Positions 1,826-51,414 are shown, counted from the stretch's first letter. The stretch is DNA of 64,000 nt from Sphaerodactylus townsendi (GCF_021028975.2 NC_059427.1:45942001-46006000); one strand, 5' to 3'. The notes: generated by a model not told the origin, from the letters alone. A program made the numbers and translations.

Positions 1826-2812
1826 TCTGATGTTGGGAAAGCAAGTGGAGTATATATCTGTTGGAGTGTCCAGGGTGGGTGGGGAAACCTTTTCTCACTT
1901 TAATATGCAACTTATCCCTGGAATCAGGCTCCATCCCTGAAGACTGGAAGATGGCCAATGTCACACCAATCTTTAAGAAAGGATCTAGGGGGGACCCAGG
2001 AAATTATAGGCCAGTCAGTTTGACATCTGTTCCTGGTAAATTAGTAGAATCTATCATTAAAGATAACATTATAAAACATGTAGAAAAGCAAGACCTGCTG
2101 AGAAAGAGTCAGCATGGCTTTTGCAGAGGCAAATCCTGTGTTACAAACTTACTAGAGTTCTTTGAGGGTGTAAACAGGCATGTGGACAGGGGTGAACCGG
2201 TGGACATTGTCTACTTGGATTTCCAAAAGGCTTTTGACAAAGTTCCTCACCAGAGACTGTTGAGAAAACTCAGCAATGAAGGAATAAGAGGGGAAGTCCT
2301 CCTATGGATTAAAAACTGGTTGAGAAACAGGAAACAAAGAGTGGGTGTAAATGGGAAGTTCTCACAATGGAGAGATGTCGGGAGTGGTGTCCCCCAAGGA
2401 TCCGTTTTGGGACCAGTGCTCTTTAACCTATTCATAAATGACCTGGAAGTAGGGGTGGGTAGCGTGGTGACCAAGTTTGCAGATGATACCAAATTATGTA
2501 GGGTGGTGAGAACCACAAAGGATTGCGAAGAGCTCCAAGCGGACCTTGATAAATTAGGTGAGTGGGCTCAGAAATGGCAAATGCAGTTCAATGTAGCAAA
2601 ATGTAAAGTGATGCACACAGGGGCAAAAAATCCAAACTTCACATACACGCTACAGGGGTCAGTTCTATCAGTCACAGACCAGGAAAGGGATTTAGGCGTC
2701 TTAGTTGATAGTTCCATGGGAATGTCAACTCAATGCATGGCAGCTGTGAAAAAGGCAAACTCTATGCTAGGGGTTCATTAGGAAAGGAATTGATAATAAA
2801 ACTGCAAAGATT

Positions 2813-3165
2813 TGAGAAGGATCCACTCAGCAGCGGTCGTGGTAACAGCAGAAGCAGTTAAGGAAAAGAAAACACAGGAACCCAGGCGTTGCTCACTTCA
2901 AAGAACAGAAGGGTTTTATTCCTTGTTTCCAAAAGCACAAAACAGTCTGACAGAGTGCAGCGCAGCAACTGGATAACCAAAGCACGCATAGACCAAACTG
3001 TTCTGTGCATACATATAGAGACATTCAACCAGGGAGCAGTGATGCAATCACACTAGATGCGCTTAGTCACGGTTGCATCACCCACTGAAACTAGGTGAAA
3101 GGTGGAGGATTGCATCAGCCAAGCTGTCAAGTAGATTTTGGTGATCTAACTGTCAAGTCCTAACA
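2813..3165 (-). repeat. Copia 3' LTR (353 bp)
   Basis: TG...CA ends; PPT GGGAAGGGG adjacent on the minus strand. Confidence 0.92.
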
Positions 3166-6100
3166 CCCCTTCCCAAAACTACTATGACAGCACCTTTATT
3201 ACTTTCAGCTGTTCTAACATTCTCTGATGCTTATTCTGTGACACAGCTTTGGTAAACACATCAGCAACATTTCGCTCTGTCTCAACATAGGCAAGTTGAA
3301 TAGTTCCATTCTGTACTAGCTCTCTAACATTCTGGTACTTTACTCCTATGTACTTAGTTCTTGTCTTCATGTTTGCAGTCTCTGCTAATGCGATGCAGGT
3401 CTGTGAATCATCAAACACGATTATAGGCTTCTTTATGGATTCACCTAACTCAGTTAGCAGTGTCTCAACCCAAAGTAGTTCTGAACACGTTTCAGACAAT
3501 GCGCAGAACTCAGCCTCAGAAGTGGACAGGCTGATTGTGGTCTGTTTTCTAGAACACCAGGTGATAGCTACATCACCATACTGAATGACAAAACCAGTAC
3601 AGGACTTCCTGTCACCACAGTCTGCAAATGAACTATCTGCAATAGGCACTTAAATCTGTGCTTTAAGTGGACTGGATCAGTAAAACCATGATCAGCAGTT
3701 CCTTTTAAGTACCTAACCACACGCTTAACACCCTCCCAATCATGTTTGCTGGGCTCGCTAGCTGTTCTGCTTAGCGTACAAACAGCAAACGCCACATCTG
3801 GGCTTGTCCAGTTAGGATATATGTAGGAGACTACCTACAACAGATTTATACAGTTCAGGATTGTTGAACTCCCCACTTTCACCACCTCTTCTGAAAGTCT
3901 AGGGACATTGGTGCTAGGCAACCCTTGCCTTTGACAATCTAGTCTTGTCCACTAACTCTTTTATTTTATTCTTCTCACTTAGGAGATAACCTTGCTTTGG
4001 TGTAGATATGACATCAATACCCAACGGCAATGCTTGATAAAACCTAAGTCCTTTAGAACATACACATGTCACTGAGTTGTTTGTACAATTTGTCAAATTG
4101 TTGTTTAGGATCTTACACACACACATATTGCTATCATCAACATAAAGAAGAATGACCTCTTGATTCTCTTTAGTTCCCCCCTTGATATATAAACATGCAT
4201 CAGCAACAGACTTCTTAAACCCCAGTTTGGCCAGTCGTACTGTTCAGTTCATTATACCAGTTAGCACCAGCTTCTGTTTTAAACCATACAAAGAACGTAT
4301 GCAAAAGATAAAACAGTATTTGGGTCTGCTTCTTCATACCCTGGTGCAGGCTTCAGATAAATTGCTTCCTTCAATTTAGCATTTAAAAAAGCACACTGGA
4401 AGTCATAATGCTTCACCATAAAGCCTTTCTTACTAGCTAATGCAAGCATAGCTCTCAAAGACTGTGGTCGTAAGCCGTGGGAGAATAGGTCTGGTCATAA
4501 TTCAGCAAACGGTCTTGTACAAACCCCTGGGCTTACAAGCCTTGCTTTTATACCTTGGAGCACCATTTGGCAACTCTTTCCTCCGGAACACCCACTTTGA
4601 CCCAATTGCCCTCTCTCCTTCTGGCAAAACAGTCTTGGTAAACACTCCGTTGTTGCACTAAGGCATTATACTCCTCAACCATAGCTTCACGCCAGAGCTC
4701 TATTTCAGCTGGCGGTAGCTTTAACATCTCTTGATAGGAGCTTGGCTCTGGATACCTGTGCTTGACAAACATAGACGCTTTGAGAAAACCCATACCTGTC
4801 AGGAGGTATCCCTTTTGTAGACCTATCAGAGATAATGGCGCACCTTAATTTGTTTCTCATCTTCTTTCACTACTGCTAGTGTCACTGTCTTGCAGCCCTT
4901 CCCCCTTCTCAGCTTTCCTGGACGCTTGGACGTTTGCCACTACTGGAAGCAGTTGGTTGACCTTGAGCTGCTGCAGGCTGCCGCCCGCAGTTCTGTTAAC
5001 CCCTTCATGCTGAGTGAAAGGTAGCAAAACCTCTGTGTTAGCATGGATAGTTTCCCATCCTGCATGCTTTTCAAAGTTTGCACTTCGAGAGATCACAACC
5101 TTTCCATAGGAATGTGCAAAACGAAAACCTTTTGTCCCAGATTCATAACCAAGAAACCCTTCAATCTCACCCACCTTCTGATCCCCCTTCCGCCTTTGGG
5201 CGTCAGGGTACCAGCACATTGGCATAACTACCAAAGATATGCAAATGATCCAGAGATGGATCTTTCTGGTACAGCAAAAAATAAGGAGTCTGGTTCACAT
5301 TAGAAGACTATACTCTGTTGGTCAAGTATGTGGCAGTGTTCACAGCCTCAGCCCAGAAATGTTCCAGGCATGTTGGCATCCAGAAGCAAACAGCCGCTTA
5401 TAGTATGTAGAACCCTAAATTTCCTCTCAGCAACCCCTGCCTCAAAAGGAGAGAAAGGGTTGGTTTTTCTCTGTGACGTATGCCTTTCTTTCTCAACCAG
5501 TTCTGGAACCCAGAACCCAGGAACTCACCTCCCTCTTGTCCGCTTTGGAGGCAAGCCACTTTTATGTGAAAACTGTCTTTCCACCATTGCCACCCACTCT
5601 TTAAACCTTGGGTAAGCCTCAGCTTTGGATTTCCAGGAAAAGACTATAGGTGAACCTGCTATAGTCATCCACCAAAACCATGTGGTACTTTCCCATGCCC
5701 CTGGCTGGGCTGAAATGGTCCAGAAAGGTCCGTATGAATTAAACCAAATGGCCTATCTGACTGTCTGGTGCTTTTCCCTTGTAGAAGGAAATGCCTTTAC
5801 TTTGGCCTTACTGCGCACAGTACAACCAAGATAATTAGGACAGGACTTGGCTTTCAGTTCACACACAACCTGGACATGTTTCCTAGCACTTTGAAACTGG
5901 TATGTCCTAGCACACGGTGCATATAATGAATACAGTCATCATGCATAGGTTTGTTAACTGCATTAGCTATGCTTTGTCCTACATCATTGTTATTTAGCTG
6001 ATAAAGGTTATTCTGCAGTATACCTGTGGCACACAGACTCTCCCTTGTTTCTTAATAGAACAGGTCTGCCCACTAAATTCCACCACATAACCCTCAGCTG

Positions 6101-7206
6101 TCAATCTAACAACGCTTAACAAACAAAATTCAAAATGAAGGCACAAAATATACATTACTCAGAGAGCTCATTTAGAGCAGGAACAAATGTTGATCCTTGA
6201 AGTTGCACCTTTGCTGCGGTGCCATCAGCTAAACAAACGCGGGTCAATAACAGGTTGGCGCACGTGGCCGCGTAAGGAGACTTTCCTTATTCACTATATG
6301 CTCAGAACAAGCAGAGTCAATGAGCCATAGTGAGTTGGAGTCCTTCTCCTTGCTTGTTACCAGGAAAGTAGATGCTTGTGATTCCTGTCTGTTAGCCCTC
6401 GCTTTCCAAGGTGGCTTGTTCTTCCTCTACCACTTTTGCATTTTGTACAGGCCCGTGCAAAATGGCCAGGATTCCCACAACGAAAACATTTTTTCACAGC
6501 ATTGCGAAGTAGGGACGGCAGAATCAGCAGGAAAATCCCTCTGCGATGATTTCTCTCAGCCGCAATCTCAAGCTGGTAGTCCCTCTGCTTCTGGTGGTCT
6601 AGCAGCTTGGCAGTGACGTGAATCCAAAGTCAGCGTAGACTCCGCGACGCTTCTGGAAACTGCATACCAACTGGTCCCAGCTGCTATCCAACCATCTAAA
6701 GCAACAGATAAACTTTGTGGGAGTCTTCAAACTGTGTAAACCTCCATCAGCCGAAGCTGTGCAAACAGTTCACGGATTCAGCTTCAGATGCTCAAACACA
6801 GATCCTCCTGGCCTCAGTTTGAGATTGTAAAGTTGTCTTGTGAGGAGGACCTTTGCCCCAGCCGACTCACGCTGATAGATGCCTTTCAAAGCCGCCCACG
6901 CCTTGGCTGCAGTCTCAGCTTCTCGCAGATAAACCAACTGTGAGCTTTCCACTGCTAGCACAACAGACGCATCGCTTTTTTCATCTGCACGCCACTCAGC
7001 AACTGTCGGGGCCGCTGGAGGCGTAGAGCTAACGTTCCACAGGTCCTCACGAACGAGATAGCTCTGCATCGGCTGGCTCCAAGCCACATAGTTATGCCTA
7101 TTCAGCCTCTCTCAAACAGCAAGCCGGACATAGTGGAAGCCATGGCAATAGCTGAGTCACATTAAGCACGCAGTACACTCACTGTTACTCACGAAAGCAC
7201 GGAGGA

Positions 7207-7220
7207 GCTGGGCCCATAAC
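7207..7220 (-). promoter_or_regulatory. Primer-binding site complementary to the tRNAi-Met anticodon arm
   Basis: Plus strand GCTGGGCCCATAAC equals an internal tRNAi-Met segment; element strand GTTATGGGCCCAGC resembles the Drosophila copia PBS. Confidence 0.85.
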
Positions 7221-7222
7221 TC

Positions 7223-7586
7223 CGAGAAGGATCCACTCAGCAGCGGTCGCGGGTAACAGCAGAAGCAGCAGCATGCAGGAAAACACAGGAACCCAGGCGT
7301 TGCTCACTTCAAAGAACAGAAGGGTTTTATTCCTTGTTTCCAAAAGCACAAAACAATCTGACAGAGTGCAGCGCAGCAACTGGATAACCAAAGCACGCGA
7401 TAGACCAAACTGTTCTGGTGCATACATATAGAGACATTCAACCAATCAAGAGCAGTGATGCAATCACACTAAGATAAGCTTAGCTCACGGTTGCATCACC
7501 CACTGAAACTATAGGTGAAGATTGGTGGAGGATTGCATCACAAGCTGTCAAGTAGATTTTGGTGATCTAACTGTCAAGTCCTAACA
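7223..7586 (-). repeat. Copia 5' LTR (364 bp)
   Basis: Direct repeat of 2813-3165, adjacent to the PBS. Confidence 0.9.
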
Positions 7587-10426
7587 AGATTGTCATGCCC
7601 TTATATAAAGCAGTGGTGCGACCGCACTTGGAGTACTGTGTCCAGTTCTGGTCGCCGCATCTCAAAAAAGGATATTGAGGAGATAGAAAAAGTGCAGAGA
7701 AGGGCAACAAAGGATGATTGAGGGACTGGAGCACCTTCCCTATGAGGAGAGGCTGCAGCGTTTGGGACTCTTTAGTTTGGAGAGGAGGCGGCTAAGGCGG
7801 GATATGATTGAAGTCTATAAAATTATGCATAGGGTAGAAAATGTTGACAGAGAGAAATTTTTCTCTCTTTCTCACAATACTAGAACCAGGGGGCATTCAT
7901 TGAAAATGGTGGGGGGAAGAATTAGGACTACTAAAAGGAAACACTTCTTCACGCAACGTGTGATTGGTGTTTGGAATATGCTGCCACAGGAGGTGGTGAT
8001 GGCCACTAACCTGGATAGCTTTAAAAAGTGGAAGCTTGGACAGATTTATGGAGGAGAAGTCGATTTATGGCTACCAATCTTGATCCTCTTTGATCTGAGA
8101 TTGCAAATGCCTTAACAGACCAGGTGATCGGGAGCAACAGCCCAGCAGAAGGCCATTGCGTTCACATCCTACATGTAATGAGCTCCCAAAGGGCACCTGG
8201 TGGGCCACTGCGAGTAGGAGAGAGCTGAAGACTAAAGATGGACTTTGAGATCTGATCCAGCTTGGCTTGCATTCTTATGTTCTTATGTTCTTATGTGTCA
8301 CCTTAGCCTTGAGTAACAAAGAAGCGGCAACCAAAGGTCCAATAGTTGAGGGCATCTTTTGAATAGATAGTACTGAAGTAACAATGAAGACTATAGCCTG
8401 GGAAGTAACCCTTGTAGATAGCAAGGTCACTGGTGGGAGCATCTGAAGTATCCTGGCCTTTGTTTCTACTAGCTTTGTCTATGGAGTCATCCTGTGTTTG
8501 TGGTAATGGAGCCCTGGTTTCCGATTACAGTCTTGACCCTAGTATTTTTTCAACACTGGCAGCCAAGAAGTTCTGTTCATTTTTCATAATTTCTTCCTTC
8601 CTAAAATTGTCCATCTCCTTATGGATTTCCAATTTAGCTTCTCTGTGTAGTCTGGACGTGAAAGTGGCTTTCAGAGTAGTCCAGAATTTCTGTTTTTTCA
8701 AATAATATTCTATGTCCAGGTTGGTTTATCATGTGTTCTGCTATTGCTGATTTTTCCTGGCTGAAATAGTCTGGCAGTGCCTTTAAAGTGGTTTAACTTT
8801 GATACGTGTCTGTGCGCTGCGTTTGGTGGTTCCTATGTAGACTTGTCCAGAGCTGCATGGTATGCGATAGACTCCTGCAGTAGCTAAAGGATCCCTCTTA
8901 TCCTTTGCTGAACGTAGCATCTGTTGAATTTTCTTAGTGGGTCTGTAGATTGTGGGATTGTTTCTTAGTGGGTCTGTAGATTGTGGGTCTGTAGTTTGTA
9001 GGTTGTGCTTCTTCATCAGTTTTCCTATGCGATCAGTGGTTCCCTTGATGTATGGTAAGAACACCTTCCCTCTAGATGGCTCTTTATCTTTGTTCATGTG
9101 GCTTGTTCTTGGTCTTGCCACAGACGCAGGCGAAACGTCAGGAGAGAATGCTGCTAGAACACGGCCATACAGCCCGGAAACCACACAGCACCCAAGTGAT
9201 TCCGGCCGTGAAAGCCTTCGACAATACATTTTGAAAATGTTTTCAAAAAATTATTTCTGCTGTGTGGCATGGCTTATTGCTGTGCTCAGATTTGTGAGTT
9301 GGGGCATGTTCTATAATGTGATGGTGACTTTGAAACAACCTGGTGTAAAAAATCATTGCTTGGTCACAGTGGGGGAGGGTGGCTGCCCATGGGGCGCGCC
9401 AAACTCCAGTTTGCCTAGATACACCACTGGTACTTTCCAATTTCATTACTTGGTAGTGGCCTTTTGGTGATGGTTTGAGTGGTGCCCTCAGCCCCCTATA
9501 GTGGTAATTTAAGATTATAAGATTCCTTCCCATGCCCCAGACATAAACGAAATGCCTGCACTGGATGACGGTTATTTGAATGCAGGATCCTCCCTAATGC
9601 TCATTACTGAAACCCTTATCTCTAGTGGTGGTAATACTTGGGATTAATGGAATTAAGTCTGAATATTACATTCTGTTTCTTATTGGGAACGCAGGCTGTC
9701 AGTAGACATCCTGAAATGATTGGTCAGCGATGGTGATTGGATAGGATCCAATTAACTGTTTGGTCTGGACAGGTCTTGTTGGCTTATCATCAGGCCAACT
9801 GGATTTATGAAGCAGGGCTGATGAGGCTGATATTAGATCTGGACTTGCAGTGGTGGGCCAGATCTCCATTATAGCACACGGGCCTCTTACCAGCTGTTTC
9901 TGGTTTGCCAGCTTCAGCCCTTCCTTAAGAGGTCAGTTAACCATGAATTGACCATACTGAGGTTGAACTACTGCAGTGTACTTTATGAGGAGCTGCCTTT
10001 GAAGTCTGAAAGCTTCAACTGGTTCAAAATGTAGTGGCAAGGCTACTTGTAGGTGTAAGATGCTGGCCGTATCTCACCAGTTTTCTTTTTCTGGCTAGTC
10101 TACATCCCTTTCTAGCCTACATGGATGATTGCTAGTCTACATCCCCTTCTAGTGCAGAGTGGAGGAAGCAGGGAGCAAGTATGCAGACTGGGATCCACTA
10201 TGAATCTTCCTGCACACTGGGGAGAGGAGAGTCTGTTTATTTGCTGTACTCTGATGTGCCAAAACCTTTCCCACAATACATCGCTCTGAAATGTGAAGCT
10301 TGAGACTGACAATTGAATGTGTTCCATGAAACTGAGTTACTGACACCTTAGAACCAGAAATCTTTGGGTGGGGTGGACTTTAGAGTACCTTTTGTGCATT
10401 GTTCTATCCTTCATCATTCTTCTTAG

Positions 10427-17055: not shown

Positions 17056-17195
17056 GCCTGTCGCAGTGTTATCTTCCGTTCACTGGCCTATTACCAAGCC
17101 AGCAAAGGAATGGGTATCTCACTGCAACTTCTCTTCCTCCTGTATCCGAAGCTGGTAGAGTATGGGAAGCTCTCCAGATGCGATCCTAGGAGGTC
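17056..17195 (-). ncRNA. SNORA7: H/ACA snoRNA SNORA7 in RPL32 intron 1
   Basis: Starts GACCTCCTAGGATCGCATCTGGAGAG; H box AGAGAA; ends CTGCGACAGGC (ACA + 3 nt); RPL32 is the known host gene. Confidence 0.9.
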
Positions 17196-48316: not shown

Positions 48317-48788
48317 CTAAATGTTGAAAAATGAAGACAAATGCAAATATATGACTTGTTCCTTGGTGAATTTTGATTATAACACATGCTACTCTATGCT
48401 CTCTTTTAATGAATGCTAAACAATGATAATATTTGAATACGGAGGATACCCTCACATTAAAGTGTGTTGGGAAAGTAAGATTAACTTTCCGCTACAGTGC
48501 AAATACATTTCATAAGCTTACCTAAAACTGGTAAGCTTATGAAAATAATACAGAACACCATACAGTGACCTGACACTAAAGGCCCACTGATAAAATAACA
48601 ACAATATAATCCTCTACAAATCTACCCGAGTCTAAGCCCACTGAAACCCAACAGGCTTAGACTGGAATGTATGGGATTGCTCTATAACAGTACCAAACTT
48701 TGGAGAATAAAGACAGATGCTTAAGATTCCTTTGTACCATCAGTGTTATATATCCCCATTAGAATTAACTTCCATTCACAATACATAC

Positions 48789-49567
48789 CTTTTATTGAGG
48801 TAAAGTGTTTTTCATCACTGGTCTGTGAAACATTAATATTCTCCTTGGGAGCAAATTTAATATCTTGGATTTTTAAAGGCATCCAATTGTTCAGGCTTTC
48901 AGGTTTTGAAGGATTTTTATCAGTAGTTGTAGTCACAAACTCACTGGGACTCTTACCACCTTTTAAAACTTCTGCACCTGACTTGTATTCCAAGATAGGT
49001 ACAACTGGATTAACATGCATCTCCACTGTTGGTTCAGAAATAAGCAGTTCATCCTTCGAGCATAGTTTCTTTCTTCTTGAGTCTAGCCAACACATTTTCT
49101 GATTATTTACACTCTCACCTTTCTTTTGTCTGCTTCTTTTAATACATCCCGTTCCTCGTTTTTGATGTGATGTTTTTCTCCGGCTTTTGTTTTGGCTATC
49201 ATCTAAATTCTTAGTTTCACAGGTCTTTAAAAAACAGTTCTTTGAGTGATCTATCGTGGGCCCATCTTGCAAACAGATAGAAACATTTTGCAACTCCCTT
49301 GCATTAGTTTGCAGTTCCAAAACTTCATTTTTCAGAAATGTTCCATGTCCCCCCTCACTATTTTGCAAACCAAGATTAGAAATCTGGCTTTTTGAGTTGC
49401 AGATCTGTACTCTTGACTCCGTAACAGTTGATCCTTGGATTCTCAATTGTGCACTGTTCTGAACAGGAACATTAAAATCAAAATCCTCTGATTTAAGAAC
49501 AATTTCACCATTCTTTTTAAAGTAATCTGAGAGAGCCCGTTTAGAGCGGAACTTCATTCCTTGAGGA
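48789..49567 (-). CDS. MBD4: MBD4 exon 3 (end of [13 protein letters not shown], plus linker)
   Basis: 779 nt, phase 2-1, open frame. Confidence 0.92.
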
Positions 49568-51414
49568 CTGAGGGGATAACAAAGCATTAACTATTTAGTG
49601 CAATATACACAAATGCTAAAAAAATGTACTTGGGGAAAAAAACAACCAACCAAACAACCAAAGCTCTCTAAAAATATTTAAGTAACATTTGCTACAATAA
49701 GAGGATTACATCCTTTTAAGTCTGTTGAAGTCAACAGGCTTAGCAGGGTATAAATCTGTTTAAGCGGCTTTTTAGTTATCATGTACACTTCAGTAGCTAT
49801 ACCTTTTTCAGCAAAAGGAAACAGCGCGGTTGTGCATTCTTTGGTGTAAGCCTTTGCAATTCCCTTTTAAGGCTAGAGAATTGTATTGAAGTACTGGCCA
49901 CATCCAAACTGTTGCCCTTTGCAGTGGTAAACAAAGCACTTTCGTAAAAGAGCATTTATAGCGTTTTGGATGGCTTACAGCAACATTTCCGCTTTTCCAC
50001 AGTTGTGCCTACCATTTTGTTTCCTGCGGCAGCACACAGTCTACAAAATGGCGGGCACAACTGCAGAAAAGCAAGAGTTGGTATAAGCCATCTGGAGCAT
50101 TTATGAAAGCGCTGTGTTTAACATTGTGAAGAATAATGGTCTTGATGCAGCCGACGCTTCAATACAATTCTCTAGCCTAAAAGAGAATCAGAATGGGAAG
50201 GGAAAGCAAGCCCTAGGACCCCGGAGGCATTCCTCCAAGCAAAAGATGTGATTCCCACATCCCCTGTTGAAAAGGTACAGAAGTGCCAGAATAAATACTT
50301 CAGTAGCTTGCAGTGACTGTAGCATAAACTAATATTATATACATATACAGGTATGTATATATTTATACATAAATATAAATGAATCATAGTGTATCCATCT
50401 TTAATAATTTTGTTGATGCAATATAGTAAAAGTCAGACCTCCCCAAGGAAGAACACTGTACTTGCCAGGAAAAGAGGGGAAGGAAACTCTTCCTTGATCC
50501 AGCTCAAGTATATTTATCCTTCTATCCACTAAAAGCTACACCATGAACCCCTATGACAATCCAGAACTTGCTGCTAGCATACAAAAGATGTTCCGTTCCA
50601 AGAAGCAAGGCCGGGGTGGAAGGAACCACTAAACACAATGTTTATTCTTAATGTACATAAACTTCTCTCAGCTCCAGATTAGGGGAGCAAAATGTGTCTT
50701 CTAAGCAGGAGGACAACACTTTTTATACTTTAGAACAGCTTTTATTTTCCCTGGCTCCAAATAAATGAGGAGAACAAATGCTTTTTAACACAACCCTTCT
50801 AGACCTCAGTAAGTAGGATACATTTAGAGTTGTTGCCAAAGAAGCTAATGGATATAGTTTGAAGCTTTATCCAAAACGAAATATGATCATCTTGGAAAAC
50901 TTAGTACATACTATATGGCTGAATAAATAATGTGAAACAATCCTATGAATATAGTGGATTATAATAATCAGATTCTACAGAGGCCATTTGTACGTGGAGT
51001 GTTAATATGCTATTTTAGCATATTCTTAAATGATACCCATAATGTCAAGTGTTACTTAAGCAAAGATAAAAGAACAAGCTTCAATCTGGACTCAAGAAAC
51101 ATTGCAAATTCTTTCCAAGTGTACACAGTAGATTAGATATTAAAAATGAATATTATATCCATCTATTTCAGGCAATATTTATTTTTTCTGTGCCTCTAAA
51201 TAGCAGCTCAACGGGTAGAGCCCAAGTAGATGAAGTTTTTTGTTGTTAGAAAGATGAAACAATGGGAAAAGCTTCATCTGTTAAACTTTTCCATGCCAGG
51301 TCAGAGCCAGGAAAACTCACATATCAGCAATCCTAAAATTCATGTGCAAGAGATTTCTCTTTTCCTCTTTTTTAAAGTGATACTTTTATTCACATGAAAC
51401 ATTTTCTTACACCT

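Follow-up and report, generated by a model that had tools for sequence, protein, structure and literature searches.

The window analysed here (the whole 64,000-nt stretch of DNA) carries a Ty1/copia element on its minus strand from position 7586 to position 2813 (coordinates exact, with no N inside). It is inserted into a LINE whose reverse transcriptase (RT) was recognised (PF00078) in a profile search of open stretches, and which we take by resemblance to be of the CR1 type. The features of the element are collected in Table 1. In a Pfam scan of 14 open stretches, nine of which gave a match, the domains follow one another on the minus strand in the order Retrotran_gag_2, zf-CCHC, Pol_BBD (weak), gag_pre-integrase, SH3_retrovirus and RVT_2; the RNase H motifs come last, after RVT_2, and the RNase H stop codon lies 7 nt from the polypurine tract (PPT). 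These coordinates and this order agree with the first-pass annotation, which had described both LTRs, a PPT, a perfect target site duplication (TSD), a gag with a CCHC knuckle and the order protease, integrase, RT, RNase H (PR-INT-RT-RH).

Table 1. Features of the copia element and its insertion site (window positions)
Feature	Position	Strand	Remarks
5' LTR	7223..7586	-	364 nt; starts TG, ends CG in the window copy, CA in siblings
Primer-binding site (PBS) GTTATGGGCCCAGC	7207..7220	-	pairs over 14 nt with nt 25-38 (linear numbering) of an initiator-type tRNA-Met
5' leader	7144..7206	-	has the GTGAGTAA word common to most families of the clade
gag	6430..7143	-	PF14223, DUF4219; CCHC zinc knuckle starts at 6488; broken in the window copy
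Protease region	6050..6345	-	WLIDSAC at 6327; PF22936 weak; limits approximate
Integrase region	5050..6010	-	GAG-pre-integrase/zinc part (HRVLGH at 5919), core, SH3-like domain; limits approximate; broken
Reverse transcriptase	3900..4700	-	PF07727 RVT_2; YVDD at 4144; limits approximate; broken in the window copy
RNase H and stop codon	3182..3650	-	ADSSFAD at 3640, DDSQ at 3412
Polypurine tract GGGAAGGGG	3166..3174	-	adjoins the 3' LTR
3' LTR	2813..3165	-	353 nt, TG...CA
TSD AGATT, left copy	2808..2812	+	
TSD AGATT, right copy	7587..7591	+	
LINE reverse transcriptase (PF00078)	1831..2807	+	split by the copia element; resumes after 7591

The gecko element is a member of the Ty1/copia group (Pseudoviridae), the identity it had been given at first pass. 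It has two LTRs of the form TG...CA (apart from the CG end noted in Table 1) and a 5-bp TSD, its integrase lies upstream of an RT-RNase H whose RT belongs to the RVT_2 family, and gag and pol form one frame with no env-like gene, two copies of the family having a single open frame of 1309 codons. The earlier description "full-length" holds for the span, but in the assembled sequence the window copy is broken: its longest stop-free stretch is 155 amino acids, and aligned to the two open stretches of a sibling it splits into 38 ungapped pieces that shift from frame to frame. Between its two LTRs there are 11 substitutions (7 of them transitions) and 12 gaps, and its junction is imperfect, the 5' LTR ending two bases before the 14-nt PBS match.

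The host, which the annotation had taken for a reptile, is a gecko and so a squamate amniote: an MBD4 exon in the window (48721-49590, minus strand) shows 100% identity with proteins labelled Sphaerodactylus townsendi, against 61-77% with those of other geckos and 42-48% with those of other lizards. This exon and a SNORA7 snoRNA (17056-17195, minus strand) are ordinary host genes. A 79-nt perfect inverted match (1731-1809 versus 9117-9195) brackets the LINE and the copia copy; it does not belong to the element. The fragments that carry it are presumably of the Penelope type, and we take a frame at 8783-9250 to resemble GIY-YIG endonucleases.

The window copy belongs to a young, multi-copy family. 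A query made of LTR and leader gave 349 first-look candidates, 40 of which were scored, and exact matches in the genome number at least 64 for the family's LTR-end plus PBS junction and at least 181 for its LTR start (reversed control, 0 in both cases). Thirty-nine scored siblings were fetched, and 35 have two LTRs in the fetched span; a matching 5-bp TSD flanks 30 of the 35 (the five misses include boundary mis-calls), and the LTRs are identical in 7/35 and have at most one difference in 14/35, values that polishing in a patchy assembly may have inflated. A contig of organism C, from a sequencing run, spans the empty site of sibling L062, with a skip of 4699 nt that equals the 4694-nt element plus the 5 nt of one TSD, although this flank may be paralogous. 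The identical LTRs and the L062 site, empty in a related run, bear out the earlier description of the family as recently active.

In comparisons of one copy with another (34 of 36 elements scored), gaps open as often (16-63 per kb) as bases are substituted (20-49 per kb). Frames are shattered even in siblings whose LTRs are identical, and we take this pattern as a sign of read error in the copies; the cleaner copies are 1.4-2.5% apart in substitutions. The breaks in the window copy are most likely uncorrected sequencing error inside repeats, since it sits within another repeat. An older, truly decayed insertion would account for its divergent LTRs and for a substitution rate to siblings (37 per kb) that is among the highest, but we think this unlikely, given that the comparison with L062 gives 77 gap openings, 55 of them of one base, against 170 substitutions, that frames are shattered in identical-LTR siblings too, and that the TSD is perfect. 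Read error in a copy of somewhat greater age fits as well. The window copy, which lies inside the LINE, is one of the worse copies and therefore itself undatable.

Over 14 nt, the PBS GTTATGGGCCCAGC matches tRNA-Met(CAT) genes of the host genome exactly; the word occurs once in the window and in 0/100 shuffles. Two such genes were recognised by ARAGORN among 6 loci picked by a longer pattern (the first 30 loci picked by the PBS pattern gave no tRNA gene), and they have A at position 1 and three G-C pairs in the anticodon stem, signatures by which we read them as initiator tRNA genes. All 29 best-matching siblings have the LTR end joined to the PBS without a spacer (CA followed directly by GGTTATGGGCCCAG), and complementarity to the tRNA extends over 15 nt in 26 of them and 14 nt in the other three. 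The sibling PBS pairs with linear nt 25-39 of the genome's own tRNA-Met, and the match ends at nt 39. The first-pass claim that the site matches the anticodon arm of tRNAi-Met and not its 3' end thus describes the family norm; the canonical 3'-end site (TGG...), as in the 3'-end tRNA-Met PBS TGGTAGCAGAGC of the GalEa clade, was looked for in the family and not seen. Like the Hemivirus elements (Drosophila copia, 1731, Ty5 and Volvox Osser), which share its PR-INT-RT-RH order, the gecko family has a PBS that pairs with the initiator tRNA-Met in its anticodon stem-loop. The pairing ends at nt 40 in standard numbering in those elements and at linear nt 39 in the gecko family, a one-position offset that we assume to be due to tRNA numbering (linear nt 39 being standard nt 40). 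The host of the gecko family is a vertebrate, and the likeness to the Hemivirus elements is one of PBS and domain order.

Several other features were seen in the leaders and elsewhere. Of 18 half-type leaders, which are related rows, 15 have the word GAGTA no more than 45 nt from the PBS (11 at offset 16-18), compared with 75 of 2603 background windows; examples are window positions 7190-7183 (minus strand) and the leaders of L062, L142, L147, L151, L155, L170 and L177. It is often part of GTGAGTAA, a splice-donor-like word, and often has an upstream TACTC arm. From two RNA runs of organism C, 839 and 757 reads fell on the element (flanking repeats included), at low depth and in both orientations, and no splice joint was found among them. 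Two further features were rejected: additional pairing with tRNA nt 1-24 behind the PBS reached p<0.05 in 3/40 leader groups, is not general and was discarded for the window family, and a dimerisation palindrome in the leader (p<0.05 in 2/19 rows) is unproven. Three loci within 25 kb on C1 (L032, L033 and L034) are short head-to-head tRNAi-Met-derived fragments in inverted arrangement that ARAGORN does not call as tRNA.

The LTR, TSD and PPT anatomy, the domain order, and the sequence and position of a PBS common to a young, multi-copy family are observed directly, as is this PBS in most of the gecko copia families sampled (below). The reading of them that we hold to be quite probable is of a young gecko Ty1/copia family that has likely long resided in lizards and is likely primed by a 5' fragment of tRNAi-Met cut after nt 39. 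The transcript would start from the 5' LTR and encode one Gag-Pol polyprotein, and tRNAi-Met would be packaged and cleaved in its anticodon stem, a cut that in Ty5 is attributed to RNase P in a review (PMC5371799). Nucleotides 25-39 of the tRNA would then anneal directly behind the 5' LTR with the 3'-OH of the fragment facing the terminal CA of the LTR, minus-strand DNA synthesis would be primed from this new 3'-OH as in Drosophila copia and yeast Ty5, the plus strand would be primed from the PPT, and integration would produce the 5-bp duplication. In cofolding, the sibling leader pairs with the tRNA nt 1-39 fragment at -17.7 kcal/mol and with the 3' part carrying CCA at 0.0. The whole tRNA also anneals (-13.4 kcal/mol) and the cut is deduced from sequence, so one could suppose that the PBS is merely inherited from the ancestor of the clade and that the primer is an intact tRNA opened at its anticodon arm, a tRNA cut later, or another RNA; we give this very little credence, as an intact tRNA offers no 3'-OH at the PBS, and in the best copies of all seven families with half-type sites (below) the complementarity ends at nt 39, right against the LTR end; this is the position given for Hemivirus priming (PMC1181622).

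The genome holds 1545 RVT_2 candidates, of which 150 were scored, and 60 of these scored loci, hand-picked across the score range, together with two siblings made up a census of its copia families. At 80% identity they form eight multi-member families and seven singletons, 27-77% identical to each other. A half-type PBS is present in 7/8 multi-member families, the eighth having a 3'-end PBS, and in 5/7 singletons, with none seen in the other two; the exact 16-mer of CA plus PBS occurs at 401 genome sites (reversed control, 0). The window element is therefore typical of the copia of this genome. That such an element is scarce or exceptional, as the annotation had implied, is not supported here; Copia makes up 0.47-1.65% of six elapid genomes and is expanding and expressed in hydrophiines (PMC8872380). 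Across the gecko genome, open frames of 1200-1346 codons persist at many copia loci belonging to several families, which therefore appear to have been active recently and at the same time.

A second gecko copia group (99/98 in the tree described below) joins family F3 (L165, L139, L141) with family F7 (L166, L163, L158). F3 has a 3'-end tRNAi-Met PBS in 7/7 loci, and F7 has a mismatched half-type PBS behind a spacer of 2-3 nt. Judged from these sites, there is a primer switch inside this group. The 3'-end PBS has 214 exact sites in the genome (control, 5), only part of them shown to be copia. Pieces of the form GGTTAT...GCCCAG lie just behind the F3 PBS and are possibly a relic of a half-type site. 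The F7 leader pairs with tRNA nt 2-17 better than do shuffles at 45 nt behind the PBS in L166 and L163 (p 0.007 in these two loci, 0.09 in a third), and a two-part PBS that offsets the mismatch in the PBS core is possible in this family.

Relatives were sought with a sibling's natural 430-aa RT-RH stretch. Word-index protein searches gave at best 40% identity among the 240 matches listed, none of which is a named vertebrate copia, and an exhaustive search of 1.84 billion representatives gave at best 42% among the 150 listed. The best exhaustive match belongs to a cluster with Podarcis lilfordi proteins (99% gag identity); a second cluster, linked to Podarcis at 96%, shares 59% identity with gecko family F3. 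Between the window family and the next gecko family the identity is 54%, and the best arthropod-labelled proteins among the matches listed are 35-41% identical. A PDB sequence search gave no match, the ESM Atlas gave only generic RVT_2 clusters, and a metagenome scan with the Podarcis-cluster protein gave 19 loci at 24-36% identity and no lizard element. A tree of 51 rows was built with IQ-TREE (LG+G4 without mixture, rooted at the midpoint; rows L149, L182, P0394 and P0400 omitted), and an additional quick tree was built without the first Podarcis cluster. The 51-row tree places the window family in a clade of 10 gecko lineages (100/97), which is sister to the first Podarcis-labelled cluster (95/91), and joins three other gecko lineages to the second Podarcis-linked cluster (99/98); three other rows branch off next, and those labelled as arthropod, plant or fungus lie outside. 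Drosophila copia, Hydra, GalEa and 1731 are not among its rows, and vertebrate transposable element proteins are sparse in the libraries, which makes unsampled donors invisible. The Podarcis lilfordi polyproteins (P0265/P0397/P0394), single polyproteins of 1320 aa, are the best single-stretch match listed, yet only 41-42% identical in RT-RH. Long residence in squamates fits these relationships, because two groups are each common to gecko and lacertid.

Near-identical element DNA was found in 13 of 22 listed sequencing runs with six organism labels; no RNA run was among the matches listed in that search. Organism C looks like a close relative of the host because its flank is about 97% identical, and contigs of organism F match the element at about 97-99% and contain none of the L062 flank. 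The annotation had suggested possible horizontal acquisition, and a recent entry into the gecko lineage from an unsampled animal (arthropod, fish, amphibian or other reptile) followed by a burst would suit the closeness of the cleaner copies, the lack of a close older relative in the sample (the next gecko family being so distant) and near-identical DNA under six organism labels whose kinship is not given. We regard such an entry as improbable: the nearest lineages are all gecko and then the Podarcis-labelled cluster, the best arthropod-labelled proteins are only 35-41% identical, and in organism C, the one other organism for which flanks were compared, the flank is present too. With a deep gecko clade, its Podarcis sister and no outside protein above 42% among the matches listed, recent horizontal transfer appears unsupported by these comparisons, and long residence in lizards is the reading we retain as likely.

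In the hemiviruses Ty5, Osser, 1731 and copia, nucleotide 40 of the anticodon stem-loop supplies the 3'-OH at which priming starts, and the genus Hemivirus is not one clade on RT trees (PMC1181622); more generally, the ICTV genera miss much of copia diversity (PMC2774666, PMC3601003). Half-tRNA PBSs like that of the gecko family are described, for Ty1/copia only, in Osser, Bryco, Gymco-II, Bianca and rust-fungus Copia (PMC6317226, PMC10886601); these lineages differ in having plant or fungal hosts, and Bianca uses a half-tRNA-Ile. GalEa of aquatic animals is, like the gecko family, a metazoan Ty1/copia with a tRNA-Met primer, but its PBS is of the 3'-end type (PMC3587641), and the Hydra clade (Hydra1-1, Hydra1-2) holds Danio Hydra1-2 (PMC2774666, PMC3587641). 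Mammals and birds lack Copia, reptiles have it, and it was probably already present in the vertebrate ancestor (PMC4350176). Silencing by 3' tRNA fragments (3'-tRFs) is described for mammalian ERVs (PMC7472051, PMC7773854), with nothing on vertebrate copia primers in the cited parts of those papers. The word "Copia" is absent from the main text of PMC7070016 and PMC6050309, whose supplements may list squamate Copia families or transfers. Matches to the PBS word in the literature are, by their listing, tRNA primers or oligonucleotides and not retrotransposons. The literature searched holds no statement on a vertebrate half-tRNA copia; subscription papers, supplements and Repbase lay outside that search, and a prior record is quite possible.

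Half-tRNA priming is textbook knowledge for fly copia and yeast Ty5 and is known in algae, mosses and rust fungi as well, and copia is known in squamates, so the window copy is in itself ordinary. A modest value lies in the census, in which the half-tRNA site is carried by most of the copia families sampled in this gecko, these families are young, and a 3'-end-primed family stands beside half-primed ones. With such neighbours, a vertebrate offers a natural comparison through which to ask how the half primer arises and whether half-primed elements escape 3'-tRF silencing. A wider reading, which we put forward tentatively and with more doubt than confidence, is that half-tRNAi-Met priming may be the main mode of a still-moving, lizard-wide copia radiation, undescribed in vertebrates, that avoids silencing by 3' tRNA fragments and has switched at least once to a 3'-end primer, in the second gecko clade. 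If true, lizards would be an amniote system for finding the enzyme that makes the 39-nt primer.
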